From: Patescibacteria group bacterium
GTDB lineage: Bacteria > Patescibacteriota > Patescibacteriia > JAHIZJ01
DNA length: 64,000 bases
Assembly (NCBI GenBank): GCA_041650335.1
Contig: JBAZLK010000004.1
Coordinates: 15,990-79,989 of the forward strand
Direction of reading: 5' to 3'
Shown here: positions 20,771 to 51,193 of the stretch, in pieces
Numbering within the stretch: the stretch's first letter is position 1
Layout: each line of letters begins with the position of its first letter
The notes under the pieces: model-generated
Seen by the model: only the letters and a program-made list of their open reading frames with translations
Database searches by the model: none
What the model was told of the DNA's origin: nothing
Position numbers and translations under genes: made by a program

Positions 20771-21793
20771 ATGCGAATGAAAGAAGCACTTTTGTATTCA
20801 AAGCTAGAAAATAATAGTGTCCGATGTCATGTTTGCGCACACAACTGCCGAATAAACACTGGTCGTCGCGGTATTTGTGCGGTCAGAGAAAACATTGACG
20901 GTACGCTTTTTGCGCTAAATTACCGAAAAGCCATCGCTGAGGCTGTCGATCCAATTGAGAAAAAGCCTTTTTTTCATTTTTTTCCGGGAACGGCCGCACT
21001 TTCCATCGCAACGTTAGGCTGTAATCTTCGGTGCGATAATTGCCAAAATTGGGATATTTCACAGGGTTCCAAGGGCGGGAAAACCATTTCTGGGCACGAC
21101 CTCTCCCCTGAAGCGATCGTTGACCACGCGGTTGCGCGCAATTGCCAAAGCATCGCTTATACCTACACCGAGCCGACTATTTTTCTCGAGTACGCGCTTG
21201 AGACGATGAAATTGGCTCGCTCGGCCGGCCTGAAAAATGTCTGGGTTTCAAATGGCTACATGAGCGAACAAACGGTTGAACTGATCCAGCCGTATCTCGA
21301 CGCGATAAACATCGATCTGAAGTTCTTTGACGATAAAACATATTTGAAAAATTGCGGTTGTCATCTCCAGCCGGTTCTCGATAACATTGTCCGTTTCAAA
21401 AAGATCGGTTGCTGGGTAGAAGTAACGACACTGGTCATACCGGGCTTAAGCGACAGCCTGAGTACCTTTGACGGTATCTCAAAATTCCTTGCAAAAAAAG
21501 CCGGACCGGAAACACCCTGGCATCTGTCGCGCTTTGATCCCGATATCTCCTATCGTCTGACTGATGGCGTTGAGACTCCGGTTGAGACGCTTGAGCGCGC
21601 GATTGATGTCGGACAAAGGAACGGACTACGCTACGTCTATATCGGAAATATCCCGGGCCATAAAAGTGAGCACACCTATTGCCCGAAGTGTGGCGACATT
21701 GCCATCCAGCGCGACGGCTACCGCGTTACCCGACATGACAAAAACGGCCTCTGTCCAAAATGTAAGATGAACATAAATATTATTCAACAATAA
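20771..21793 (+). CDS. amrS: AmmeMemoRadiSam system radical SAM enzyme
   Basis: N-terminal Cys cluster (CHVCAHNCRI ... RGICAVR) plus CX3CX2C radical SAM motif (CNLRCDNC); C-terminal CPKC...CPKC; 340 aa. Confidence 0.7.
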   Translation: MRMKEALLYSKLENNSVRCHVCAHNCRINTGRRGICAVRENIDGTLFALNYRKAIAEAVDPIEKKPFFHFFPGTAALSIATLGCNLRCDNCQNWDISQGSKGGKTISGHDLSPEAIVDHAVARNCQSIAYTYTEPTIFLEYALETMKLARSAGLKNVWVSNGYMSEQTVELIQPYLDAINIDLKFFDDKTYLKNCGCHLQPVLDNIVRFKKIGCWVEVTTLVIPGLSDSLSTFDGISKFLAKKAGPETPWHLSRFDPDISYRLTDGVETPVETLERAIDVGQRNGLRYVYIGNIPGHKSEHTYCPKCGDIAIQRDGYRVTRHDKNGLCPKCKMNINIIQQ

Positions 21794-23215
21794 ATGACCA
21801 TTATAAAACGAATCGTTGTCTCACTCATCATCCTGAATTTTATTATGCCGGCTCCGTTGCTGGCCGCCGTTTGTCATCCAAACAACCTCCTGTCCGATGA
21901 GGACCTCTTGAATTATCAATCAATGTCAAAGGACAGGATTCAAAAGTTCCTCGAGTCAAAAACTGGCGTTCTCGATACCTATACAACATCGGTTTTTGGC
22001 ACGAATATGTCCGCGGCTCAAATTATCTACGACGTTGCGCAGAAGTATAAGATTAATCCGAAGTATCTGCTCGTGCGCCTCGAAGTTGAGCAAGGATTAA
22101 TTTCTGATTCAAGCCCGACTCAAAACCAAATTGATTACGCGGCCGGATTTGGCTGCCCGGACGGCACCGGGTGTTCAAGCACCTATAAGGGTTTTTCCAC
22201 CCAAGTGATGTGGGCCGCAAAAATATTTCTCAATACGGAACTGGACAGCTATGGAAATCCCAAAGGCTATATTACCCGGATACGAAAGCTTGGCAGAACG
22301 GTCAGCGGCTGGGGTCCGTTCATCACCAAAAATACGTTGGATGGCATCGCGGTTACACCCGAGAATGCTGCCACCGCAGCACTCTACACCTATACACCCT
22401 GGGTTGGAAAATACGGCGGTGGCGACCTGCGTTGGGGCGGCAGTTCGCTCGTCTGGAAGAAATGGACCGATTGGTTTGGCAAGATTTACCCAGACGGCAG
22501 TTTGCTCCAGGTCATCGGCCAGCCAGCCGTCTATTTGATTAAAAACGGGCGTAAGCGGGCTTTTTGGTCCAAATCCGCGTTCCTGGCCAACTATAACCCA
22601 AAGAACATCCTGACGGTCTCTCAGAACGATATTGACGCGTACGAAGACGGACCGCCAATCAAGTTTCCTGAGTATAGCCTCCTCCAGGGTCCGGACGAAA
22701 AAACGTATCTCATAGCAGACAACGAAAAACATCTGATCGAATCTGATTCGGTCTTTCGCAAGATTGGCTATAATCCGGAAGAAGTTATCCCGGTCGAGTC
22801 CAGCGACATAAAAAGTTATCCGACCGGATACGCCATCACGATGGATAGCGTCTATCCAACCGGCGTGCTCTTGCAGTCAAAACAATCCGGCGCCGTTACG
22901 TATGTGAAGAACGGCACCCGATACGGCATCGTTTCGAGAGAGATACTGCTCTCTAACTTTCCGAAACCCCACCTCATCCAGGTAGACGAGTCCGAGATTC
23001 AGCAATACCGAGCCGGTCCGCCGCTAAAATTCAAAGATGGTACCTTAATTACTTCAAAAGAATCACATGCCGTTTTTGTCATCTCGAACGGCAAGCGGAA
23101 GCGCATTGCCTCGGCCGAGGCGTTTAACCAGCTTGGCTACAAATGGGAAAATATCGTCACCACGACGGATTTCGCTGTCCGCATCCATCCGAGCAGTCGG
23201 GTCTTAAACCCTTAG
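21794..23215 (+). CDS. Secreted hypothetical protein with four ~65-aa tandem repeats
   Basis: signal peptide (IILNFIMPAPLLAAV), repeated Y-[LV]-I/K-NG-x-[KR]-[RY]-x-I pattern four times in the C-terminal half. Confidence 0.4.
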   Translation: MTIIKRIVVSLIILNFIMPAPLLAAVCHPNNLLSDEDLLNYQSMSKDRIQKFLESKTGVLDTYTTSVFGTNMSAAQIIYDVAQKYKINPKYLLVRLEVEQGLISDSSPTQNQIDYAAGFGCPDGTGCSSTYKGFSTQVMWAAKIFLNTELDSYGNPKGYITRIRKLGRTVSGWGPFITKNTLDGIAVTPENAATAALYTYTPWVGKYGGGDLRWGGSSLVWKKWTDWFGKIYPDGSLLQVIGQPAVYLIKNGRKRAFWSKSAFLANYNPKNILTVSQNDIDAYEDGPPIKFPEYSLLQGPDEKTYLIADNEKHLIESDSVFRKIGYNPEEVIPVESSDIKSYPTGYAITMDSVYPTGVLLQSKQSGAVTYVKNGTRYGIVSREILLSNFPKPHLIQVDESEIQQYRAGPPLKFKDGTLITSKESHAVFVISNGKRKRIASAEAFNQLGYKWENIVTTTDFAVRIHPSSRVLNP

Positions 23216-23219
23216 GCTC

Positions 23220-24017
23220 ATGGCACTCGTTGTTGCCGGTTTTGTCCCGCATCCGCCGATTATTGTTGCCGGTATCGGTCAGCCAAACGATCTCACGCTG
23301 GTTACGAAAACGCGCCAGGCAATGTCACGCTTGGCCGTTTTATATCGCGAGGCGAAACCAGACATCACGATCATTGTCTCACCTCACAGCCAGCTTCGGC
23401 CGGATTTTTTTCTGATCAATACAGCGAATAATTTTTACGGTTCTTTTGCGCCATTCGGTCATGACGAAATCCACCAGGAATACGCTGGTTCGCCGAAGGA
23501 AGGCGCTGAATTATATACTTTGGTAGTAGCTAAGAATATCCCCGTTAATCTCTATAAAGAGCCAGAGCTTGATCACGGCATTCTCGTACCATTATCGTTT
23601 CTTGAAAGTGGTTCAAAGCCGGCGCAACTTATGCCGCTCAGTTATTCATTTTGCTCGATTGAACAACATCTCGAGCTTGGCCGCTGCCTGGGTGAATATT
23701 GTCGGACGTCACAGCAACGAATTGCGCTCATCGCGTCAGGTGATTTATCGCACCGTCTTTTCAAAGGCGCACCAGCCGGTTTCTCTCCGCGCGGAAAAGA
23801 ATTCGACCAAGAAATCATTGAGCTTATCGGACAGCGTAAGTATGAGGCAATCGCGTCGCTTGATCCGGACTTTGTTGAAGACGCCGGTGAATGCGGATAC
23901 CGATCGCTGTGCATCCTGATGGGAGCGCTTGAGTCTGAGTTAGCCCAGCCGAACATTTTATCATATGAAGGCCCGTTCGGCGTCGGGTATGCGGTTATTC
24001 ACTTTCCAATCTCATGA
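23220..24017 (+). CDS. amrB: AmmeMemoRadiSam system protein B candidate (Memo-like / class III extradiol dioxygenase subunit B superfamily)
   Basis: N-terminal VAGFVPHPPIIV and SPHS motifs typical of LigB/Memo superfamily; 4-nt overlap with AMMECR1 gene. Confidence 0.5.
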   Translation: MALVVAGFVPHPPIIVAGIGQPNDLTLVTKTRQAMSRLAVLYREAKPDITIIVSPHSQLRPDFFLINTANNFYGSFAPFGHDEIHQEYAGSPKEGAELYTLVVAKNIPVNLYKEPELDHGILVPLSFLESGSKPAQLMPLSYSFCSIEQHLELGRCLGEYCRTSQQRIALIASGDLSHRLFKGAPAGFSPRGKEFDQEIIELIGQRKYEAIASLDPDFVEDAGECGYRSLCILMGALESELAQPNILSYEGPFGVGYAVIHFPIS

Positions 24018-24526
24018 ACTATTACGTTTCTCTCGCCCGCCAAGCGATACGATCATTCTTGCAATCAGGGATGATCCTGGCTGTCCCCGACGACACGCCT
24101 GAAGCGTTACGCCACGATCGAGCAGCGGTTTTTGTTTCGCTCCATAAAAACGGTGAATTGCGCGGCTGTATCGGTACGCTCGAACCGACGACGGATTGCG
24201 TGGCTGAAGAAGTAATCGCGAATGCCATCGCCGCGGCAACCCGCGATCCTCGGTTTGAACCAATGAAACTGTCCGAATTGTCACAGACAGATATAAAAGT
24301 TGATCGTTTGAATACCCCTGAGCCGGCGACACGTGGATCCCTGAATCCACAAAAATACGGAGTCATCGTCCAATCGCGTCAGCAACGAGGTGTTTTGTTG
24401 CCGGATATAGAGGGCGTTAACACGGTTGCTGAACAGGTTTCCATTGCCGCTTCGAAAGCCGGCATCGATGTAACAAAGGACAAATATTCCCTCCAACGCT
24501 TCACCATTACAAGATTTTCTGAATAA
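24014..24526 (+). CDS. amrA: AMMECR1-domain protein (AmmeMemoRadiSam system protein A)
   Basis: AMMECR1 signature AVFVSLHKNGELRGCIGT; 170 aa. Confidence 0.75.
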   Translation: MNYYVSLARQAIRSFLQSGMILAVPDDTPEALRHDRAAVFVSLHKNGELRGCIGTLEPTTDCVAEEVIANAIAAATRDPRFEPMKLSELSQTDIKVDRLNTPEPATRGSLNPQKYGVIVQSRQQRGVLLPDIEGVNTVAEQVSIAASKAGIDVTKDKYSLQRFTITRFSE

Positions 24527-24527
24527 T

Positions 24528-26408
24528 ATGTACGCCTACGTCATACCGAGTCTACGAATGCCCAGAACACTGTCGAGTTTTGATTATCGTGTTCCTGACA
24601 CCTTGCGATGCCAGCCTGGCGACATTGTTTTCATCCCCTTTCGTAACCGAAAAGTATTTGGTGTGATCGATGAAATATCACAATCTCCTCGGAAAAAAAC
24701 TGGCGCCATAAAGACGATAACAAGCGTCTATCCCGGTATTTCATTGCAACAGCAGCAATTAGAGCTTATCCATGAATTCGCACGAAAATTCTTCGTCTCT
24801 CCGGCGACCGTCGTGAATTCAATCCTGCAAACGCTCCCCCGCCGGACTTTTTCTCAAATCACTCCTGATCGAAAACCGCCGGCGAGCCCTGGCCACGATT
24901 TCCAACCAGCCCTAAAAAATGACTGTTTACTTTTGTATAATACCGATCAAGGAAAATTTGACTACATTCATTCCATAGTGAAAACGTATCTAGAAAGCAA
25001 TCAAGGCGTTTTAATTGTCGCGCCGGAAATATCACGGGTGCGCGATTGGGAACGGCGCCTGAAACAATATCAACCGATCATTTTTCATCGGCAGCTCCCG
25101 CCAGCTCTGTACTGGACGCAGTACAAAGACCAGGCCAGACGTCCGCACGGTCTAACCATCGGGACCCGGTCCGCTTTATTTACACCCCTCGCGTCTGTCC
25201 GCTTGATTATCATCGACGAGGAGGATAATCAAAATCACCGTCAGGCCGAAATGAATCCCCGCTATCATACCGAGGACGTCGCCCGGATGATCGTGCGATC
25301 CACCAGGGCCACCATCCTCATGACAAGCCGCGCTCCGCGAACGACGACTATGTATCAGATTGAAAACCATTCGCTTGACCTGATCGATGTACGAATGAAA
25401 TTGCCTACGGTGACACCGGTGATCATTGATTTGAATGAAGAAAAGCGGCTTGGCAATTACACCTTAATCAGCGCGAAAATGCGCGCCTATATATTTCAAG
25501 CGCTTCAGAAGAAGCAGCGCGTCTTGCTATTTCATAACAAACTCGGCGAAGCGCGCTCCTTCCAATGCCTTGATTGTCACAATCCGTTCCCCTGCCCGCG
25601 CTGTCAGAAGAACCTCATCATCGAAAAGGTTTCAAAAAGTCATCAGCAGCTGCATTGCACCCTGTGCGGCTATACCAGCGATCTGCCGCTCGCCTGCCCG
25701 GTTTGTCATGGCGTCCGGCTAAAACAGCGCGGGGCTGGTTTGCAAAAGATTGCTGCTGAAATAAGCGCCTCATTTCCGTCAGCAAAAACTCACGTGATTA
25801 CGGATGCGGGCTCGCGTTCGGTCCCGGCGAAGACTGATATTATTATCGGCGCCCAGCGTGCACTCGGTTCGGCGATTCTCCGGTCCGTTCAAGGCATTAT
25901 CGTTATTTCAGCGGACACGATCTTGCGTTTGCCTGATTTTTCAGCACCGGAATCAACCTATCGACAACTCTCGTTTATCACTCAGTTCGCGGCTGAGCAT
26001 GGAACCAATATGATGGTCCAAACGTCATTTCCCGATCATTATGCTATTCGCTCAGCCGTTACACAAAATTCGGATCTTTTTTATCAAAGTGAGTTCCAGC
26101 AGCGGGCTGAATATCACTATCCACCGGCGACGGAGTTAGTTCGCCTGTTTATCAAGGGGGGAAAAAAGCAAACGATTTCCGACCAGGCGGACCGGCTTTA
26201 CCAACAAATTTTAGAAAAACACAATTTGCCTTCGTCAATTGAGATTGTCCAGCCGGGACCATCATTTATCGAAAAAATCCGCGGCCAGTTTTCCTGGCAG
26301 CTAATCATTAAATTTCACAAAAAAGATTGGCCAACGGTCAAATCTTTGATATCATTAACAACTGACGACTGGCTCGTCGATATTAATCCATTAAATCTCT
26401 TATCATAG
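24528..26408 (+). CDS. priA: Primosomal protein N' (PriA) homolog with degenerate Walker A/B motifs
   Basis: Cys4-Cys4 zinc-binding region (CLDCHNPFPCPRCQ...CTLCGY...CPVCHG) diagnostic of PriA; helicase core present, but Walker A position reads YNTDQGKFDYI instead of GVTGSGKTEVY and Walker B reads DEED instead of DEEH. Confidence 0.75.
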   Translation: MYAYVIPSLRMPRTLSSFDYRVPDTLRCQPGDIVFIPFRNRKVFGVIDEISQSPRKKTGAIKTITSVYPGISLQQQQLELIHEFARKFFVSPATVVNSILQTLPRRTFSQITPDRKPPASPGHDFQPALKNDCLLLYNTDQGKFDYIHSIVKTYLESNQGVLIVAPEISRVRDWERRLKQYQPIIFHRQLPPALYWTQYKDQARRPHGLTIGTRSALFTPLASVRLIIIDEEDNQNHRQAEMNPRYHTEDVARMIVRSTRATILMTSRAPRTTTMYQIENHSLDLIDVRMKLPTVTPVIIDLNEEKRLGNYTLISAKMRAYIFQALQKKQRVLLFHNKLGEARSFQCLDCHNPFPCPRCQKNLIIEKVSKSHQQLHCTLCGYTSDLPLACPVCHGVRLKQRGAGLQKIAAEISASFPSAKTHVITDAGSRSVPAKTDIIIGAQRALGSAILRSVQGIIVISADTILRLPDFSAPESTYRQLSFITQFAAEHGTNMMVQTSFPDHYAIRSAVTQNSDLFYQSEFQQRAEYHYPPATELVRLFIKGGKKQTISDQADRLYQQILEKHNLPSSIEIVQPGPSFIEKIRGQFSWQLIIKFHKKDWPTVKSLISLTTDDWLVDINPLNLLS

Positions 26409-26409
26409 T

Positions 26410-26886
26410 ATGAAGCTGAAAGTAATCACGCTCGGCGATAAACGCCTCCGTCAAAAATCCGTTCCAATTGCTGATCCGAGTGATCCAAAAATACGCGAGT
26501 TTACTAAAGATCTGGCTAACACGATGTACCAATCAGACGGGGTCGGTATTGCCGCCCCTCAGGTTGGTAAAAATATCCGCGTCGTTGTTATTGGCGTAAA
26601 AAGCGGCCCACTGGTGATGATCAATCCATCCATATCACGGAAATCATGGCGACAAGTCGAGGCTGAAGAGGGCTGTTTGAGCGTGCCCGGAGTTTTCGGA
26701 TTAGTCCGACGGAGTCGATCATTATTGGTTTCATTTTATGATGCGCATGGTACAAAGCAAAAATTGAAGGCTGAAGGAATGTTCGCCCGTGTGATCCAGC
26801 ACGAGGTGGACCATTTAAACGGCGTGTTATTCATCGACCGGACAAAAAAATACACCAAAACGGTAAACAATCGTAAAAAAATATGA
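26410..26886 (+). CDS. def: Peptide deformylase
   Basis: motifs GIGIAAPQVG, EGCLSVPG, HEVDHLNG; 158 aa. Confidence 0.9.
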   Translation: MKLKVITLGDKRLRQKSVPIADPSDPKIREFTKDLANTMYQSDGVGIAAPQVGKNIRVVVIGVKSGPLVMINPSISRKSWRQVEAEEGCLSVPGVFGLVRRSRSLLVSFYDAHGTKQKLKAEGMFARVIQHEVDHLNGVLFIDRTKKYTKTVNNRKKI

Positions 26887-27839
26887 CGCTAGAGAATAGC
26901 CGATGCGTATTTTTCGGTACTCCGGAATTAGCAGTTCCTTTTTTAAAATTCCTGGAAGAAAAAAATATTCACATCGTCGGGGTTGTCACGCAACCCGACA
27001 AACCGCACGGACGACACCGGGCGCTCCAACCGACGCCGGTCAAAGTCGCCGCCCGGAAGTCATCGTTAACAGTTTTTACATTTGACTCATTACGAAAGGC
27101 TGAATCGGTTACCGCGTTATCGGAACTGAAGCCGGATCTATTTATCGTTGTCGCGTATGGTCTGATCATTCCGAAAAAAATACTTGGCCTGCCACGACTT
27201 GGCTCGATCAACGTTCACCCTTCCCTTCTGCCAAAATATCGCGGCCCCACTCCTATTCCAGCGCCAATCTTGGAGGGCGACACTGAAACCGGCATCACGA
27301 TCATGAAAATGGATACCGGTATGGACACTGGCCCGATATTGCGGTCAATCAAAATTGCGCTTGATAAAAATGAGACCGCCTCGTCCCTGACGCAGAAAAT
27401 CATGAACCGCGGTCCAGAATTTTTATTTCGAGTTTTGAATGATTATGTTGCTGGATCGATAAAACCAATCCCACAACAGGCGTCTGGCGCGTCATATACG
27501 AAGATGCTATCGAAAGCAGACGGCTTGATCGACTGGCATCAATCAGCGTCCGTCATTGAACGGAAGATCCGCGCCTACCAGCCGTGGCCAGTCGCCTTTA
27601 CCTATTGGAACGGCAGAAAACTGGACATTTTAGAGGCTGAGCATTCCCCGCTGGTGACTTCGTTATACCCGGGCGCGCTGACTGACCAAGACGGCCGGGC
27701 CGGGATTGTGACCGGCGGCGGGCAAGAAGGAAATGTTCTGGTATTGAAGAAAGTGCGGCTGGAATCAAAAAAAGAAATGTCAATTGAGTCATTTCTTCGC
27801 GGTTACCCGGATTTTTTGAAAGGCTCGATCGGAAAATAA
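26883..27839 (+). CDS. fmt: Methionyl-tRNA formyltransferase
   Basis: N-terminal formyltransferase domain (FFGTPELAVPFL, SLLPKYRG), C-terminal domain; overlaps def by 4 nt. Confidence 0.85.
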   Translation: MTLENSRCVFFGTPELAVPFLKFLEEKNIHIVGVVTQPDKPHGRHRALQPTPVKVAARKSSLTVFTFDSLRKAESVTALSELKPDLFIVVAYGLIIPKKILGLPRLGSINVHPSLLPKYRGPTPIPAPILEGDTETGITIMKMDTGMDTGPILRSIKIALDKNETASSLTQKIMNRGPEFLFRVLNDYVAGSIKPIPQQASGASYTKMLSKADGLIDWHQSASVIERKIRAYQPWPVAFTYWNGRKLDILEAEHSPLVTSLYPGALTDQDGRAGIVTGGGQEGNVLVLKKVRLESKKEMSIESFLRGYPDFLKGSIGK

Positions 27840-44011: not shown

Positions 44012-45211
44012 ATGCGCTTGGCATTTATCACGAACAGCCTTCCCTATCCGCCCGAAAAGGACGGGCAAGCCTTAATCGCCTATCATTTATTGACGCGCCT
44101 GTCTCAACGGCACCAGATCCGATTGCTTTGTTTTGGCGACAAACACGATCTCCCGAATATCAAGCGTTTTACCGACCTCGGCATCAGTGTGAAGCTTTTT
44201 GACCGCCCGAAGCGCCTGCTTCCCTTCTACTATCTCTCGCCGAAGTCGCGTTCAATGGCCTGGTTCCAATACCAGCTGTACACGCCCGAAATGATCTGGG
44301 AAATCGAAACGCTCGACGGTCGCCCCGATGTCGATCTCGTCTATTTCCACTCCCCGTTCATTTCGGCCTACCTGAAACATATCTCACACACACCCGTTGT
44401 TTTTGGTTATATTGACGCGTATTCCTCGTGGTATGAACAATTCCGGGCCATCACGAAAAATCCGTTAAAAAAAATCCATTATCGCTTCGAGCGTGAAAAA
44501 GCTATCGCTCTTGAGCAACACGTCCTGCCGACATTGTCGGAAACTATTGTTGTCTCAGCTGTTGACCGCAAAACCATCCAGCAGCTCGCCCCGACGGCCA
44601 ACGTATCCGTTATTGCCAACGGCGTGGATCTAAAATTCTTCCGTCCCTCGGAATCACAACCTGATAACGAAACGATTGTCTTCACCGGGACCATGAATTT
44701 TCCGCCGAACGTCCGGGCCGTCCTCGATTTCAATAAGAATGTCTGGCCGTTGCTCAAGCAAGCGCACCCGCGAGTCCAATGGTATATCGTCGGAAAGAAT
44801 CCGACCCTCGATATTTTCGAGCTTCAGTCGCTCGATCCACAAATCACCGTTACCGATTATGTAAAGGACATCCGCTGTTATTTATGGCGCTCGGCTGTGT
44901 ATGTCTCGGCCATAACGCTTGGTGCCGGCTTTAAAAACAAAATTGTCGAGGCGATGGCCTGCGGCAAGGCGATCGTCGCCACGCCAACCAGCATCGCTGG
45001 ATTACCGATCTCTGACGGCGAGAATATCTTCGTGGCAAATTCTTCCCATGAAATGTATGAAAAAATACACCGGCTCTTTGAGTCGTCCGATCTACGTCAG
45101 AAGGTTGAACGCCAAGCCCGGATCTTTGCCGAGCAGTATGATTGGAACATAGCTATTCAAAAATACGAATCAATTTTTATTAAACATGCCCGTCCCAATG
45201 CAGAGGTATAG
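44012..45211 (+). CDS. Glycosyltransferase family 4
   Basis: GT-B pattern, C-terminal VYVSAITLGAGFKNKIVEAMACGKAIVAT motif; 399 aa. Confidence 0.7.
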   Translation: MRLAFITNSLPYPPEKDGQALIAYHLLTRLSQRHQIRLLCFGDKHDLPNIKRFTDLGISVKLFDRPKRLLPFYYLSPKSRSMAWFQYQLYTPEMIWEIETLDGRPDVDLVYFHSPFISAYLKHISHTPVVFGYIDAYSSWYEQFRAITKNPLKKIHYRFEREKAIALEQHVLPTLSETIVVSAVDRKTIQQLAPTANVSVIANGVDLKFFRPSESQPDNETIVFTGTMNFPPNVRAVLDFNKNVWPLLKQAHPRVQWYIVGKNPTLDIFELQSLDPQITVTDYVKDIRCYLWRSAVYVSAITLGAGFKNKIVEAMACGKAIVATPTSIAGLPISDGENIFVANSSHEMYEKIHRLFESSDLRQKVERQARIFAEQYDWNIAIQKYESIFIKHARPNAEV

Positions 45212-46583
45212 CTTTCAACGAATCGGACAAACTCTTTTTCTGACGGTGTTGATCGCGGCGCCGCTCTTATATGCCATTACGCGGCATCCGACCTACGAAA
45301 ATATCTTACAAATTTTGATTTTAACGGTATTATTACCGATATTTTTAATTGACTATGAGCTGGGCTTTCTTGCTCTCATCGTCCTTCGCCCAGCCATGGA
45401 CACATTCAGCCAGATTGATTTTCTCAACGTCGGACAATTTTCCCTGAATCTGTCATCCGTGGTCGGTTTGCTGGTCATCGCCTGGATACTATTTTACCTT
45501 ATTCGCCGTCAAGAACGCGTTTGGAAACAGCCGTTGTTTTGGCCCTTTTTTGTCTTTGTCATTATCAGCGTCATCTCATTATTCTACACCCCGTCACTCT
45601 CCGCCACGATCCGGGAAGTCGTCAGGATCGCCAGCATATTCTTTATCTATTTAATGGCTGGCGCCATGGTCGTCAATAGAAAAGGCGCCGCTCGCTTTCT
45701 GAAGGCCATCGCGCTTTCTAGCATCATACCCATAACGGTTGCTTTGTATCAATTTTTCACGCAAACGGGATTGAGCTTTGCCGGATTGAATAACCGCGTC
45801 TACGGCACGCTGGTTCATCCCAATGCCTTTGCTACCTATTTACTCATTATTTTCATTCTCGGATTCGGTTATTTTTTATCCCATCGTCAAGAGGGAATAA
45901 AAAAACACGGTTGGCTCATCATCGGCCTACTTCTTACAATCGGTCTACTGATCTTGACTTATACGCGCGGCGCCTGGATTTGTTTCGGAATTATTGTTTT
46001 CATCATGGGCCTGAAATACTATAAGAAAGTGTTGGTGGCGCTTTTTGGCCTGGCTGTGTTCCTGTTGCTTTTTGGTCCAACGCTTAACCGTTTCATCTTT
46101 ACGAATTTTGACTATGATTTTTCCCGCAATCCTGTCATCCAGCGTCTGACGGAAAAGAATTCCGACGCCGAAAGCTCGATCGATTGGCGCTTCAAGGTCT
46201 GGACGGAAATGAGCCGTAAAATCGCCGACCGGCCGTATCTGGGTTATGGCTTTGGCGCGTTTCCGGTGATCCGCCAGCAATTCGTGAAGGGTATGTACGA
46301 GAGCACCGAGGCTCATAACGACTATCTCCGCCTGGTGATCGAGCTTGGCCTGGTGGGCATACTGGCGTACTTGGTAATTTTAGGTAAGCTTGTTTACAAT
46401 ATTTTCCAACATTTACGAGCCAAGCTTCCAGCGACGGATAAAGCCTGGCTGTATTCCGGCTTATCGCTGATCGCGGCCGTTCTGGTGATGAGCATTTCGG
46501 ACAATGTTCTGCAGGGAACGGCGAATATGTGGCTTTTCTGGGCGGGCATGGCCGTATTGCAAAAACTTCCGACATTAAAGTAG
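45186..46583 (+). CDS. O-antigen ligase / Wzy-like polymerase family polytopic membrane protein
   Basis: ~10-12 TM helices, periplasmic loop with YTRGAW...H motif region typical of Wzy_C/O-antigen ligase family. Confidence 0.6.
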   Translation: MPVPMQRYSFQRIGQTLFLTVLIAAPLLYAITRHPTYENILQILILTVLLPIFLIDYELGFLALIVLRPAMDTFSQIDFLNVGQFSLNLSSVVGLLVIAWILFYLIRRQERVWKQPLFWPFFVFVIISVISLFYTPSLSATIREVVRIASIFFIYLMAGAMVVNRKGAARFLKAIALSSIIPITVALYQFFTQTGLSFAGLNNRVYGTLVHPNAFATYLLIIFILGFGYFLSHRQEGIKKHGWLIIGLLLTIGLLILTYTRGAWICFGIIVFIMGLKYYKKVLVALFGLAVFLLLFGPTLNRFIFTNFDYDFSRNPVIQRLTEKNSDAESSIDWRFKVWTEMSRKIADRPYLGYGFGAFPVIRQQFVKGMYESTEAHNDYLRLVIELGLVGILAYLVILGKLVYNIFQHLRAKLPATDKAWLYSGLSLIAAVLVMSISDNVLQGTANMWLFWAGMAVLQKLPTLK

Positions 46584-46683: not shown

Positions 46684-46714
46684 AAAGAGCTGCCGCTTGG
46701 TAGCGGCCTACTGA

Positions 46715-47275
46715 CTACTGCTTCCCGACCCAGGTCCAGGTGCCGTCGGCGTTCCAGATGGGCCGATACCCGCCGAACTGCTGGCCCTTGTCGTTCTTGG
46801 CCCGACTCGGGTGGTTCCAGGTCCACGGCCAGGCCGTGACGCCGTCGGCCGAGGGTCGGCACCAGAGGTAGCACCCCTCGTCCTGGCACTTGCATTCCTT
46901 CAGCGGGATGACGAACTCGACCGCCTGGCTGCCATTGCCCACGTTCGCCACCGTGGGATCGGTTTCGACGCAGAGCAGGCCGCTCAGTCCGACCGTGTAG
47001 GGGCCGGGAACGGGGGTCTGGCCCGACCATTCGATGGCCTTCGGAAAGCTGACGAAGATGCGGATGTGCCACCCGTCAGCAGCCAGATACGAGTCGATCG
47101 GGTTCTTGTCCGACAGGGTCGGACGCGCCGGAGCCGCGGGAGCCGGGGTGACCGCCGCCTTCGCGCTGTCAGCCGGCGGCGGAGCCACCTGGCTGTCCTT
47201 GATCTCGGCCAGCGCGGGCTGGACGAGCGCGAACGTGACAACCGCGACCATGAGCACGAGCATGAGCTTCTTCAT
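46715..47275 (-). CDS. High-G+C secreted hypothetical protein, Cys-containing (186 aa)
   Basis: start refined to ATG at 47275 (MKKLMLVLMVAVVTFALVQPALA signal peptide) with SD GGAGGAATGGAGAA upstream; Ala/Pro-rich linker then domain with CxC...C...C (KECKCQDEGCYLWC). Confidence 0.45.
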   Translation of the reverse strand: MKKLMLVLMVAVVTFALVQPALAEIKDSQVAPPPADSAKAAVTPAPAAPARPTLSDKNPIDSYLAADGWHIRIFVSFPKAIEWSGQTPVPGPYTVGLSGLLCVETDPTVANVGNGSQAVEFVIPLKECKCQDEGCYLWCRPSADGVTAWPWTWNHPSRAKNDKGQQFGGYRPIWNADGTWTWVGKQ

Positions 47276-47333
47276 TTCTCCATTCCTCCGTGGGTTTGAG
47301 TTTCCGAACTTGCTACTAGGTCGTGGCGGGAAC

Positions 47334-48221
47334 TCAGGGGTTCCCGCCGATGTGGATGCCGTAGAGCCGTTCATCTCCGTCCCTGGGGTTCTTGAACTCC
47401 CCGGAGCCGGTGATCGCGTACTCGAAGGCACAGTACCCATTACCCAGATCGTGGATACACTTCAGGAGCGTCGCCTGTTCGAAGTTGTCTTCCGGACCGA
47501 AGTAGACGCCGGCCCGGAGTTCTTCGCCGGTGAGCTTCTGAAGCCTCAGGTAGCCCTTGGACGCCTTCTTGACCATCACCTTCTCGTTCTCGGTGGTCCA
47601 TCGCCCGCTGACGAACTCCATTGCGTGAGCACGATCGCGGAAGCCGGTCCATGTCCCCAGCCATTCGACCGGCTGGGTAGGATCGGCGGGCCAGTTTCGC
47701 CCGTCCGGCAGTCCGGTACCGGTGTACCAGATCTGCGCCGAAATCAGGGAATCAGGTCCGTCTGGGGACACCGCGATCGCCCCGTTCTCGAGGTAGACCG
47801 AGAAGGAACGACAGGTCTCCCACTCATTGGAGCCCGCCGATCCCTGAATCCGAGTGCCGCCGACCGAGATGTCGACCATCCGGTAGTAGCGGCTGTCGGC
47901 CGGATTCTTGGCCCAGAACCAGACTGGGATGCCCTTCTCGTTGCCCCACGACCACCAGAGGTAGTCCCCCTCGACGTGGCCGTCGGCATAGGTGGCAAAC
48001 GGCATCCTGATGTTCCGATCCTGTTCGTATCCAGGCACGACCGGACCGCTGATATACACCGGCCAGCCGTCCTCGGCCACCGCGCACGTCGCGGAAAAGC
48101 CGAGCGTCATCTGTTCCTGCTCGGACAGCCCGGGCGCGGTCATCGTCCACTCGTCACGGCTGCAGCCCAGGGGCATGATCGCCACCAGGACCAGCAGTGC
48201 CACCAACACATACCTGCGCAT
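47334..48221 (-). CDS. High-G+C hypothetical lipoprotein/secreted protein (295 aa)
   Basis: start refined to ATG 48221 (MRRYVLVALLVLVAIMPLGC - signal peptide ending in Cys) with SD GGAGGAAACCGAAG upstream; Trp/Gly-rich beta-type sequence. Confidence 0.45.
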   Translation of the reverse strand: MRRYVLVALLVLVAIMPLGCSRDEWTMTAPGLSEQEQMTLGFSATCAVAEDGWPVYISGPVVPGYEQDRNIRMPFATYADGHVEGDYLWWSWGNEKGIPVWFWAKNPADSRYYRMVDISVGGTRIQGSAGSNEWETCRSFSVYLENGAIAVSPDGPDSLISAQIWYTGTGLPDGRNWPADPTQPVEWLGTWTGFRDRAHAMEFVSGRWTTENEKVMVKKASKGYLRLQKLTGEELRAGVYFGPEDNFEQATLLKCIHDLGNGYCAFEYAITGSGEFKNPRDGDERLYGIHIGGNP

Positions 48222-48244
48222 CTTCGGTTTCCTCCTTCTTCCTT

Positions 48245-50068
48245 CTACCAGCTGTGGTCGAGGCTGATCCCCGCCCACTGCCGGTCCGTGTGGTACACCT
48301 TGCCGTTGACCAGATCCCGGTCGACGGCATCATTCAGGTACTTGAAGTTCCCCTTCAGACGCCACCACCGGTTGATCCGATACTCAATTCCGATCCCGGG
48401 GCCACGCCAGTCGAATGACCAGCTCGGGTTGTCGTACGACCAGGAGTCGTACGAGGCGTAGACGATGATGTAGTGGTTGAACTTGTACCCGATCCGTCCC
48501 TCGAACACCTGCATGGTGTCGGCCGGGAAGGACAGGGTCTGGTTGTCGAAGTGCCGTGACTGTCCGCGGCGGTACTGGACGTCGTACGACGCCCGGAAAT
48601 ACAACGGGTGCGGTTCAATCGAGAAGCTCCCCCCGATCTCGCGATCAAGGTTTGTTCCGCGCTTGAACATCGCCTCGTAGTACCCCAGCTTCGGGGTAAT
48701 GCCGAGCACTCTCGCGTATCCTCCGTAACCATCGAAGTACCGTGCGTCCTCGCGCGCCTTGATGGTCGTGGGCGAAATCTGCCGGTAGTTGATGAACTCG
48801 CGCTGGCCGGCCAGATACCAGGCGCCGGCTTCAAAGCCCGTACGCCAGGCACCCGCCTCGTCGCCGAGGATCCACCCCCGGCCGCCGAGCCGGTAATCGC
48901 CGGACACGTGATTCTTGTCCAGCGACGCCTGCTCGATTCGGATGACAGTCGAGAGATCGCGTAGGCGACCCCAGCCGTCGTAGCCGGAAATCCGTGGCAG
49001 CCACTCCAGTCCTCCCAGGAACGAATGCTGTCGGTCAAGGTTACCCTTCCGGTCTTTCCCGCCCTGGGAATACCGGTAGTCGAGCCACCAGACGCCGCCC
49101 GAGACGAACTCGTGAGACACCTCAGGCTCTTGGGCGTAGAACGGCCCTTCCACCTTGGGCTGTCGAGCCGACTCAGGCGGCGACACCGTCACCTGGCTTT
49201 CGGCTTCGTCCACGAACGCTCGCCTGACATAGGCGGCGTTGCCGCAGACGACGAACCGATACAGGTGGTACCGGTAACCCTCGTAGTCCACAAAGGGATA
49301 TTCGAGGGCAACGGTCCGGTCGACCGACTGTCGCGACTTCGGGTCTTTCCAGAAGCAGGCCGTCCTGCCCCAGGAAATGTTCTTGCCAAAACACAGGCCG
49401 TCGACGATGAGCGGTGACGCCTCAGTTGAGTACATCCAGACACTGTCCGGCGTACTCGCTTCAACGAGGCTCACCCACTCCGCCCGAACCTGGTCCGGTA
49501 CCTTGAAGGACTTGATCTGGTCCTTGAGCGGCGTCCGAGCCGGATCACCGCCGAGGAATTCCCAGCGACGGATGACCTGTTCGGGCTTCTGCGTGAAGAG
49601 ATGCTCGCCCGGCAGGACATACCGTCGATCAAGACCATTCCAGGCTCGAAGAGTATCAGCCGGAACGCCCAGCTCCTTCGAGAGGGCTTTCCAGCCTTCA
49701 CCCGGCTTTACGACTCTGGTGGGTGGCAACCGGATGGGTTCCGGCTGCTTTTCCGAGCGTTTCAGTTCGAGCTTGGTATCCTGGACGGCGACCCAGTTGG
49801 TTGAGTCGCAGTAGGCCAAGACCCGGTACTTCACCCAGAAGGCGTCCTTCCCCGTCTGTTCGACGCAGAAGTCCGTGGCCTTGGGCACCTGTATCCTGAC
49901 CACGCGGTCGTTCACCAGAACGCCCACGTCAACCGTGTTCCTGCCATTCGGCAAGCTCACGGCCTTCAGGTTGATAACGGTGCCCACCGGGGGCTGCGTG
50001 CACTGAGCCAGTGCATTGGTCGAGAAGACCAGCGCGCAGACGAACAACAGAACCGTGAACTGCTTCAT
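48245..50068 (-). CDS. High-G+C secreted protein with LysM-like domain and C-terminal beta-barrel-like region (outer-membrane-protein-like)
   Basis: signal peptide MKQFTVLLFVCALVFSTNALA; LysM-like segment VKPGEGWKALSKELGVPADTLRAWNGLDRRYVLPGEHLF; C-terminal ~300 aa with alternating hydrophobic/aromatic pattern rich in Y/W/G/R ending in ...ISLDHSW (terminal aromatic); SD GGAGGATTCGGTC before ATG. Confidence 0.5.
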   Translation of the reverse strand: MKQFTVLLFVCALVFSTNALAQCTQPPVGTVINLKAVSLPNGRNTVDVGVLVNDRVVRIQVPKATDFCVEQTGKDAFWVKYRVLAYCDSTNWVAVQDTKLELKRSEKQPEPIRLPPTRVVKPGEGWKALSKELGVPADTLRAWNGLDRRYVLPGEHLFTQKPEQVIRRWEFLGGDPARTPLKDQIKSFKVPDQVRAEWVSLVEASTPDSVWMYSTEASPLIVDGLCFGKNISWGRTACFWKDPKSRQSVDRTVALEYPFVDYEGYRYHLYRFVVCGNAAYVRRAFVDEAESQVTVSPPESARQPKVEGPFYAQEPEVSHEFVSGGVWWLDYRYSQGGKDRKGNLDRQHSFLGGLEWLPRISGYDGWGRLRDLSTVIRIEQASLDKNHVSGDYRLGGRGWILGDEAGAWRTGFEAGAWYLAGQREFINYRQISPTTIKAREDARYFDGYGGYARVLGITPKLGYYEAMFKRGTNLDREIGGSFSIEPHPLYFRASYDVQYRRGQSRHFDNQTLSFPADTMQVFEGRIGYKFNHYIIVYASYDSWSYDNPSWSFDWRGPGIGIEYRINRWWRLKGNFKYLNDAVDRDLVNGKVYHTDRQWAGISLDHSW

Positions 50069-50278
50069 GACCGAATCCTCCCCTTTTCAAACCGTGTGAC
50101 TGTCTATGCCGTTTGGTTAGCCGTCTATCTGTAGAACCAGTGACTTGGATCCGTAGATGAAATGTCAATTTGCATCAGTGAGCTTGCGTTGTCGCTTCCT
50201 ACCGCGTGCAAGAGAGCTCACACGTCCAGTACGATTCGCATCGTCCTAAACGTGGCAAGACCTCTTGCGAGGTTTGCC

Positions 50279-51193
50279 TTATTCGAAATTTTGAAATTCC
50301 TCTTCCGGGCCATTCCAAAGCGGTCGGTTCGGGATCGTTTCCGGCGTATCCTTCAGATGGTCGTAGATCGTTCGAATTTTCGTATTGCCTGTATCTTTAT
50401 TCGGTGCAATCGGCTTGCCTTGCCGAACGGTTTCTGGAGTAATTTCGTTTATCGGTTCGAGCGGTTGTGCTTTTGGTATGTATTCTTGAAACATAAAATT
50501 GTTTTCGGCCGGCAACGGCTGTTCAAACGGCTGCTCAGGTACCGCTTCAGCAGGTGCCCTGTCGGCAGTCAACGGCACCGTTTCTTGATTTTTTGATCGC
50601 ATGGCGAGCAGTACCGAGTAGCCGATTGAGCCGCCCAAGCCGAGTAAGATACCGGCGGCCAGATTCAAGGCGATGTTCGGCCGGACCGGCTGATTGCTCG
50701 TGGTCGGATAATCAACGATTTTCAAGACGATTGAATTTCCGCCACCGAGATACTCCGTGCCATTCTCAGACAAGACCATGGCGATGGCATTGGACAGGCT
50801 TTCTGCTTGAGAACGGTTTTGATTATATACCGCCATCTTTATTACTCCGATATCCGGTGAAACGCGAGTTTCAATCTGTCGTTTCCATTGCTCGCGACGC
50901 TTAATTTCGTCTGACGGAAATTTTATATCGGAACTCAGGTAGCCTGAATTCACAACCTTATCGTAGAACGAGGTTGTGTAAATCATTTGGCCAAGCGAAA
51001 CGCTCAGACGTTCGGCTGATTTGGCCGCAGAATAGGCGTCGAGATTCGGATCCTTTTCAATGACAAGCAATGAAAAAGAAGACCGGTATTCGAACGGCTG
51101 TACAAACGTGAATATTACGGCCAAGGCCAGCGTCGTAACCGATACCAGCGTTATCATTAGCCAATTTTGCTTGATCTTCGCTAAATAGTTCAT
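50279..51193 (-). CDS. Wzz-like polysaccharide chain-length determinant / PCP family protein
   Basis: N-terminal TM (LMITLVSVTTLALAVIF), extracytoplasmic domain, second TM (LNLAAGILLGLGGSIGYSVLL), Pro/Glu-rich C-terminal tail. Confidence 0.45.
   Translation of the reverse strand: MNYLAKIKQNWLMITLVSVTTLALAVIFTFVQPFEYRSSFSLLVIEKDPNLDAYSAAKSAERLSVSLGQMIYTTSFYDKVVNSGYLSSDIKFPSDEIKRREQWKRQIETRVSPDIGVIKMAVYNQNRSQAESLSNAIAMVLSENGTEYLGGGNSIVLKIVDYPTTSNQPVRPNIALNLAAGILLGLGGSIGYSVLLAMRSKNQETVPLTADRAPAEAVPEQPFEQPLPAENNFMFQEYIPKAQPLEPINEITPETVRQGKPIAPNKDTGNTKIRTIYDHLKDTPETIPNRPLWNGPEEEFQNFE

Follow-up and report, generated by a model that had tools for sequence, protein, structure and literature searches.

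We report here that the priA gene in a 64,000-nucleotide stretch of a Patescibacteria group bacterium (JAHIZJ01; assembly GCA_041650335.1, contig JBAZLK010000004.1, positions 15,990 to 79,989 of the forward strand; the whole stretch is hereafter called the window) encodes a PriA ortholog whose helicase motor is degenerate and whose fork-recognition parts are conserved. The gene is located at 24528..26408 on the + strand (coordinates including the stop codon), exactly matches an open reading frame (ORF) whose true start is 24528, and encodes a protein of 626 aa. Our analysis suggests that the orthologous PriA of this organism has most probably turned into a pseudohelicase, which would act as an ATP-independent scaffold for fork recognition and helicase loading. 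We infer the scaffold role from the retention of the recognition elements alongside the loss of the motor elements.

Identity of the Protein

The NCBIfam model for the replication restart helicase PriA, TIGR00595, gave the protein 265.6 bits, which exceeds its curated cut-off for equivalogs (230.35), and HMMER aligned the protein to the E. coli and Klebsiella PriA chains of known structure at E~1e-33. The top database match came from a Patescibacteria group metagenome-assembled genome (MAG), was 100% identical and bore the name "primosomal protein N'", which is all that databases call the protein. On all sequence and fold criteria tested, the protein is a PriA ortholog; judged by its motifs, it is a PriA ortholog and not a PriA helicase. 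The original prediction had identified PriA from its Cys-rich insertion, and this stretch is present with eight cysteines; the Pfam domains PF17764 and PF18074 were also matched.

The NCBI record MFA5107403.1 (616 aa) begins priA at the internal Met11 (window position 24558), which is ten codons late. The first ten codons (MYAYVIPSLR, 24528-24557) differ only synonymously from those of the ortholog L002, and the peptide aligns with the first strand of the 3'-DNA-binding domain (3'BD) of E. coli PriA, so the 626-aa start is correct.

Loss of the Helicase Motor

In the HMMER alignment to PriA structures, the remnant of motif I or Walker A, LLLYNTDQGKFDYI (24927..24968, + strand, residues 134-147), stands opposite E. 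coli LLAGVTGSGKTEVY, and IIIDEEDN stands opposite VIDEEHD. The Mg-binding Thr position of Walker A is Phe, and the Walker A Lys is kept as K143. Motif II (LIIIDEEDN) and the equivalent of the aromatic-rich loop (HRQAEMNPRY) lie together at 25203..25265 (+ strand, residues 226-246); Walker B is nearly intact here, with D230-E231-E232 kept and H->D as the sole change (DEED for DEEH). Further downstream are the remnants of motif V (IIIGAQRALGSAILR, 25839..25883, + strand, residues 438-452) and motif VI (YRQLSFITQFAAEHGTN, 25959..26009, + strand, residues 478-494), the latter with both arginine fingers gone and its loop deleted. A regular-expression scan of the whole protein found none of the patterns [GA]xxxxGK[ST], GK[ST] and GRxGR, and the Pfam families DEAD, Helicase_C and ResIII gave no match to it. 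Of the superfamily 2 helicase motifs Q, I, II, III, V and VI, by which ATPase and helicase competence was judged, all but the nearly intact motif II are lost in this protein, as are motifs Ia and IV.

The motif loss is shared by many relatives. E. coli PriA and the query were aligned with 329 non-redundant homologs, which were taken from a word-indexed search, an exhaustive HMMER search of 1.84 billion representatives (15,128 matches at E<=1e-3) and 80 GTDB genome loci. The P-loop and motif VI were both missing in 197 of 328 sequences, the query included (the degenerate group), and both present in the other 131, E. coli PriA included (the canonical group). The Walker A columns G224, G227, S228, G229 and T231 (E. 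coli numbering here and for the other columns) are conserved at 95-100% in the canonical group vs 2-7% in the degenerate group. The corresponding values are 90-98% vs 2-30% for K544, G545 and D547 of motif V, and 100% vs 2-6% for Q580, G583, R584 and R587 of motif VI. In the degenerate group, the catalytic Glu of motif II is E in just 23% of sequences, and the Walker A Lys is K in 51% and R in 24%.

A scan of the 104 columns that are at least 90% conserved in the 131 canonical PriAs was carried out in the 197 degenerate ones. Conservation dropped below 30% in 27 of these columns, all 27 of which fall in helicase motifs and none in the 3'BD, the Cys-rich region or the C-terminal domain (CTD). 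Constraint was lost at L199 and Q203 of the Q motif; G224, T226, G227, S228, G229 and T231 of motif I; L257, T258 and Q260 of motif Ia; the catalytic E321 of motif II; G355, A357 and T358 of motif III; Q420 of motif IV; M541, K544, G545, D547 and V554 of motif V; and Q580, G583, R584, G586, R587 and G592 of motif VI. On the other hand, 41 of the 104 columns stayed at least 80% conserved, among them Y20 of the 3'-end pocket, the eight cysteines and residues of the CTD.

The alignment to the PriA of a model organism and to relatives confirmed the substitutions that the original prediction had noted in the ATP-binding motifs, and its reading of Walker A as degenerate holds. The H->D change in Walker B is also real, but calling this motif degenerate was an overstatement, since its three acidic residues are kept. 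The overall loss had been understated, as the erosion of motifs Q, Ia, III, IV, V and VI had been missed. A canonical GxxxxGK[T/S] in another part of the protein, which a corrected alignment might have revealed, was not found.

The AlphaFold2 model of the 626-aa protein, built from a 75-sequence alignment, had a mean predicted local distance difference test (pLDDT) value of 92.1 and a predicted template-modelling score of 0.90. The best Foldseek match in the PDB was fork-bound E. coli PriA (8FAK chain H; E=4.7e-43, template-modelling score (TM) 0.84, root-mean-square deviation (rmsd) 4.2 Å), followed by the remaining PriA structures at TM 0.64-0.73, and the first non-PriA match reached TM 0.34. 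The protein is thus predicted to have the overall PriA fold with two RecA-like lobes. Compared with the apo/ADP structures 6DCR and 4NL4, the model gave TM 0.73 and an rmsd of >8 Å. The model appears nearer to the fork-bound, pore-forming conformation than to the apo E. coli conformation, as if the Cys-rich region had pivoted, but this likeness is only suggestive because AlphaFold2 conformations are not state assignments.

The winged-helix domain, which E. coli PriA has but which is not universal, is missing from both the protein and its model. In its place, and in that of the Q-motif helix, there is a short disordered linker (24840..24923, + strand, residues 105-132) with pLDDT 50-76 and no secondary structure. 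Between the end of the 3'BD (E. coli P101) and the Walker A position (E. coli G224), the protein has a segment of 33 aa, compared with 123 aa in E. coli. As a matched control, the canonical short Patescibacteria-type PriA P0023 was modelled in the same way (pLDDT 93.0), and the DSSP strings were compared. The control has a 5-residue P-loop (VTGSG) with the helix beginning at Lys, whereas the query has a 3-residue loop (YNT) with the helix beginning three residues before K143. At motif VI, the 10-residue loop RTGRGEEPGK of the control, which bears the arginine fingers, is replaced by a continuous helix with a 2-residue loop, and the Q-motif helix of the control (residues 127-138) has no counterpart. 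These models, which follow the structural check suggested in the original prediction, predict a physical absence, beyond mere substitution, of three elements: the phosphate cradle, the loop with the arginine fingers and the element for adenine recognition.

Conserved Fork-Recognition Elements

The 3'BD (24528..24839, + strand, residues 1-104) matched Pfam PF17764 (PriA_3primeBD) at E=3.6e-13. Its F18-D19-Y20 pocket for the nascent leading-strand 3' end aligns with E. coli F16-D17-Y18, and in the degenerate group these positions are 87% F, 66% D and 99% Y. The aromatic-rich loop, which in E. coli touches the fork junction (PMC5175346, PMC10175261), is also conserved, with K/R238, Q239, P244, R245 and Y246 at 77-100% in the degenerate group. 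P244 is found in 100%, R245 (E. coli R334) is R in 92%, and Y246 (E. coli Y335) is Y in 77% and F in 22%; the loop positions K328 and W333 (E. coli numbering) are among the 41 columns that stay highly conserved.

The Cys-rich zinc-binding region (25557..25727, + strand, residues 344-400) is inserted in helicase lobe 2 and has two 4-Cys zinc sites, made up of four CxxC pairs. The eight cysteines (residues 347, 350, 356, 359, 377, 380, 390 and 393) align with E. coli C436-C479 and are 99-100% conserved in the canonical and degenerate groups. The PriA C-terminal domain (26118..26405, + strand, residues 531-626) matched Pfam PF18074 (PriA_C) at E=2.1e-8 with 35.3 bits against a cut-off of 26.9, and its residues Y531-P532-P533, P576, D618 and P621 are conserved.

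Within the Cys-rich region, Asp349 (window 25572-25574) of the CxDC motif is present in 89% of degenerate vs 28% of canonical PriAs. It aligns with E. coli Asp438, a residue that contacts PriB (PMC10175261), and it is the sole match here among the four PriB-contact residues of E. coli, as the other three are not conserved. From this conservation pattern, the surface around Asp349 may be a partner-docking site, either retained or new.

Distribution and Evolution

The 197 degenerate homologs belong mostly to the ultrasmall Patescibacteria. Relatives were found in >576 GTDB species representatives with one peptide pattern, which also matches canonical forms. Among the best 80 genome loci and three loci of the close ortholog P0002, 64 were degenerate and 13 fully canonical. 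The degenerate loci carried the labels Falkowbacteria, Kuenenbacteria, Buchananbacteria, Kerfeldbacteria, Magasanikiibacteriota, Paceibacterota, Parcubacteria and unclassified Patescibacteria, and the Kerfeldbacteria gene lies on the complete chromosome CP181398.1. The canonical loci were labelled Moranbacteria, Doudnabacteria and, mostly, Saccharibacteria. Some of these titles are doubtful. Many TPA metagenome bins titled "uncultured Gammaproteobacteria bacterium", with contigs up to 886 kb, have a Patescibacteria-type PriA in the AMMECR1-priA-def-fmt arrangement, and several "Saccharibacteria"-titled bins are questionable on the same grounds of PriA type and locus (L006, L008, L010, L014-L016, L019, L028, L031, L038, L041, L042, L047, L049 and L081 in all). 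These record titles look like taxonomic mislabels.

In the window, priA is preceded by AMMECR1 (24014..24526, + strand) with a 1-nt gap and directly followed by def (26410-26886, + strand) and fmt (26883-27839, + strand), all three assigned by Pfam. This AMMECR1-priA-def-fmt order is common to the window and the loci of canonical Patescibacteria PriAs. A def gene was found at most 400 nt downstream of priA in 36 of 64 degenerate and 16 of 18 canonical loci, and AMMECR1 often lies directly upstream in both kinds. As both share one locus arrangement, the degenerate forms are orthologs that occupy this locus too and not paralogs elsewhere.

A neighbour-joining tree was calculated from 553 columns after masking of the helicase motifs. 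It placed 196 of 197 degenerate sequences in a single clade that is free of canonical sequences and is sister to the Moranbacteria-type canonical PriAs; the root state was canonical, and parsimony required a minimum of two changes. The mean root-to-tip depth was 1.78 for the degenerate vs 1.37 for the canonical group. Support was moderate: in bootstrap replicates of a 60+60 subsample, strict monophyly was recovered in 42%, and one or two changes in 94%. The loss of motifs I and VI is also seen beyond Patescibacteria, in three PriAs. P0202 groups with Chloroflexota-type canonical PriAs. P0120 (L085 6001-8124) comes from an Eisenbacteria MAG with a non-CPR (Candidate Phyla Radiation) gene context, has no def-fmt downstream and sits on a terminal branch of 0.74. 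The Omnitrophota-labelled P0057 lies on a 3.8-kb contig and may be misbinned. At least P0202 and P0120, both members of the degenerate group, are probably separate losses or long-branch artefacts, and the PriA motor may have been lost several times. In view of the 42% support for strict monophyly and of these two sequences, which look separate, a single loss is not claimed. From the tree, we concluded that there were apparently one or a few ancient motor losses inside Patescibacteria, plus sporadic losses elsewhere.

The canonical short Patescibacteria PriAs also have no winged helix, with a linker of 45-60 aa. The loss of the winged helix is therefore not tied to that of the motor, and it probably preceded it.

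Selection and Alternative Explanations

The possibility that priA is a decaying pseudogene, or that its state results from a sequencing or assembly artefact, is suggested by the motif loss alone. However, the 626-codon ORF is intact, and the ratio of nonsynonymous to synonymous substitution rates (dN/dS; Nei-Gojobori, window against the 86%-identical ortholog L002) was 0.10 for the whole gene, on par with def (0.12) and fmt (0.12); the value for AMMECR1 was 0.15. Within priA, it was 0.04 for the 3'BD, 0.025 for the Cys-rich region, 0.12 for helicase lobe 1, 0.09 for helicase lobe 2 after the Cys-rich region, and 0.13 for the CTD. The degenerate lobes remain constrained, as would be predicted for a DNA-binding scaffold. 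An identical 626-aa protein is independently recorded in JGI/Logan/ENA on a 368,560-bp contig (P0264), and the 86%-identical ortholog, from other samples, has the same gene order and the same degenerate motifs (YNTDHSKSDYI), which excludes sequencing error. Stops crowd both alternative frames throughout the region, which excludes a P-loop concealed by a frameshift. In addition, the structure model is confident, and the degenerate state is common to the 197 homologs of about 600-660 aa. Decay or artefact is therefore effectively refuted, and we give it practically no chance; sequencing error and frameshift had been named as refuting conditions in the original prediction.

Several points weigh against the pseudohelicase reading. 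The survival of K143 and of D230, E231 and E232 makes a weak non-canonical nucleotide site conceivable, the loss of ATPase activity and the retention of fork binding are predictions, and our view covers a 64-kb window of the genome, which leaves room for a further, canonical PriA or a different restart helicase elsewhere. The surviving residues could mean that the protein is still an active ATPase and helicase, and a second, weaker nucleotide site has been reported for E. coli PriA (reviewed in PMC5778457). But the protein has no glycine-rich loop, no Mg-binding Thr, no Q motif and neither of the two arginine fingers, the P-loop and motif VI loops are shortened in the predicted structure, and the survivors themselves vary in relatives, as seen for the Lys and the catalytic Glu. 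Moreover, the K230R change alone is enough to kill the activity of E. coli PriA (PMC5778457). Continued motor activity is thus very unlikely. Slightly less improbable, though still unlikely, is that this gene is a neofunctionalised copy with a role outside restart, while a canonical PriA or another restart system is encoded elsewhere in the genome. The limited view of the genome and the faster evolution of the degenerate group would fit such a copy, as would the few positions that gained constraint, such as D349. Nevertheless, the gene occupies the same locus as canonical Patescibacteria priA, and the fork-recognition elements are all still constrained. Also, no two of the 80 best loci share an assembly, near-complete chromosomes included, even though the search pattern matches canonical forms as well.

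Comparison with Known PriA Proteins

That a PriA can be a pseudohelicase is not new in principle, as the Deinococcus case is already described. Lopper et al. (2015) published the concept for Deinococcus-Thermus, where the PriA of D. radiodurans shows neither ATPase nor helicase activity, binds single-stranded DNA and forks with an affinity near that of the E. coli protein, and interacts with DnaB (PMC4504706). As in the protein studied here, the Walker A and B motifs of Deinococcus-Thermus PriA are non-consensus in an otherwise recognisable, conserved PriA; the matches to motifs I and II are poor, and the Lys of GKT is changed to Arg (PMC4504706). The activity loss of Deinococcus PriA is experimental, whereas the same functional logic is proposed for the Patescibacteria protein from its sequence and model.

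The two cases differ in depth. Unlike in Deinococcus-Thermus, erosion extends to every one of motifs Q, I, Ia, III, IV, V and VI, with eight motifs affected here and two loop deletions in addition, and the Patescibacteria PriA has no winged-helix domain, which is unlike the Deinococcus-Thermus description. They also differ in scale and in lineage, as the degenerate clade is nested among canonical Patescibacteria PriAs. Because this clade is sister to the canonical Moranbacteria-type PriAs, the phylogeny suggests that the motor was lost independently of Deinococcus-Thermus. The canonical short Patescibacteria PriAs (P0023 and the Moranbacteria- and Doudnabacteria-labelled loci) resemble the protein of the window in their size class (about 650 aa), the absence of a winged helix and the def-fmt synteny, but they keep GxTGSGKT, DEEH and QxxGRxGR.

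E. coli PriA, for which the structures 4NL4, 6DCR, 6DGD and 8FAK served for comparison, belongs to the same family and has the same fold (TM 0.84 to 8FAK), and its 3'BD, aromatic-rich loop, Cys-rich region and CTD are conserved here. It has 732 aa, including a winged-helix domain, is active as a 3'-5' helicase and has PriB, DnaT and DnaC as partners; the present protein, in contrast, has 626 aa, no winged-helix domain and lost motor motifs. It has been reported that E. coli PriA binds all three fork arms, with the 3'BD holding the nascent leading-strand 3' end and the aromatic-rich loop of helicase domain 1 wedged at the junction, while the Cys-rich region, helicase domain 2 and the CTD close a pore round the lagging-strand single-stranded DNA and so expose the PriB docking surface (PMC10175261, PMC5175346). 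The PriA-PriB pathway works without the ATPase or helicase activity of PriA (PMC10175261; PMC5175346). In the E. coli priA300 (K230R) mutant, the ATPase is abolished, but the primosome is still assembled and restart is supported via the PriA-PriB pathway (PMC5778457).

The analysis shows orthology, motif loss, purifying selection, a distribution across the clade and the predicted fold. From the sequence, the model and these precedents, we infer that the Patescibacteria protein has no ATPase activity but still binds forks and loads the helicase. The 3'BD pocket would hold the nascent leading-strand 3' end and the aromatic-rich loop would wedge into the fork junction, allowing forks and D-loops to be bound without ATP. 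The protein would then be a platform where DnaB, the replicative helicase, is loaded again, directly or through SSB or a loader, and a partner may dock on the Cys-rich-region surface at D349. PriA itself would not unwind a duplex lagging arm; another helicase would clear such arms, or such substrates would be avoided. The idea in the original prediction of a scaffold for fork recognition or primosome loading gains support from the restriction of constraint loss to the motor and from the published cases (PMC4504706; PMC5778457).

On a broader scale, we lean slightly towards the view that a large and ancient Patescibacteria radiation uses a minimal PriA that works without ATP, purely as a fork sensor and loader, to restart replication, after losing the whole motor in one or a few events. 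This radiation would comprise at least about 190 clusters at 50% identity, from Falkowbacteria, Kuenenbacteria, Buchananbacteria, Kerfeldbacteria, Magasanikbacteria and many Paceibacteria/Parcubacteria. If true, the helicase activity of PriA is dispensable across a sizeable part of bacterial diversity, beyond Deinococcus-Thermus. It would be a second exception, apparently independent, larger and more extreme, in which hundreds of Patescibacteria lineages keep a motor-less PriA under strong purifying selection. The one exception noted in a review of the field would extend to a major bacterial radiation, with a mechanism that was already anticipated. It supports the view that structure-specific fork recognition and helicase loading are the core job of PriA and that unwinding is accessory. 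A further question is how bacteria whose genomes are tiny handle forks with a duplex lagging arm. The case also offers a naturally minimal PriA, without winged helix and motor, for structural and biochemical study. Our literature search, whose coverage left out most subscription journals, turned up no publication on such a protein or on PriA in Patescibacteria or CPR.

Other Features of the Window

The AMMECR1 gene abuts priA in the window and in many Patescibacteria loci, degenerate and canonical alike. In the window, it belongs to an AmmeMemoRadiSam-type trio with a radical SAM gene (20771-21793) and a LigB/Memo-like gene (23220-24017), AMMECR1 itself being at 24014-24526. The trio is split by an ORF of 473 aa (21794-23215) that has no Pfam match and shows a dN/dS of 0.044 against L002, which indicates very strong purifying selection.

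No tRNA gene or Rfam family reached the threshold within the 64-kb window. The other genes have ordinary housekeeping and envelope functions, such as an RseP-like M50 protease, MreBCD, PBP2, GreA, Alr, Ddl and ClpB, as well as class II (D/K/N-type) and seryl-tRNA synthetases and many glycosyltransferases. The polysaccharide gene cluster contains a GC-rich island (46700-50100; GC 0.59-0.62 vs about 0.47 in the background), flanked by Wzy_C (45186-46583) and by Wzz (50279-51193). Three ORFs lie in it on the minus strand (46715-47440, 47334-48278 and 48245-50068), with signal-peptide-like N-termini and no Pfam match. The island may have been horizontally acquired or may be a binning or assembly chimera. 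By eye, its 607-aa ORF has a LysM-like stretch and a Tyr/Trp-rich C-terminus resembling a beta-barrel, and such a protein would be odd for a monoderm Patescibacterium.

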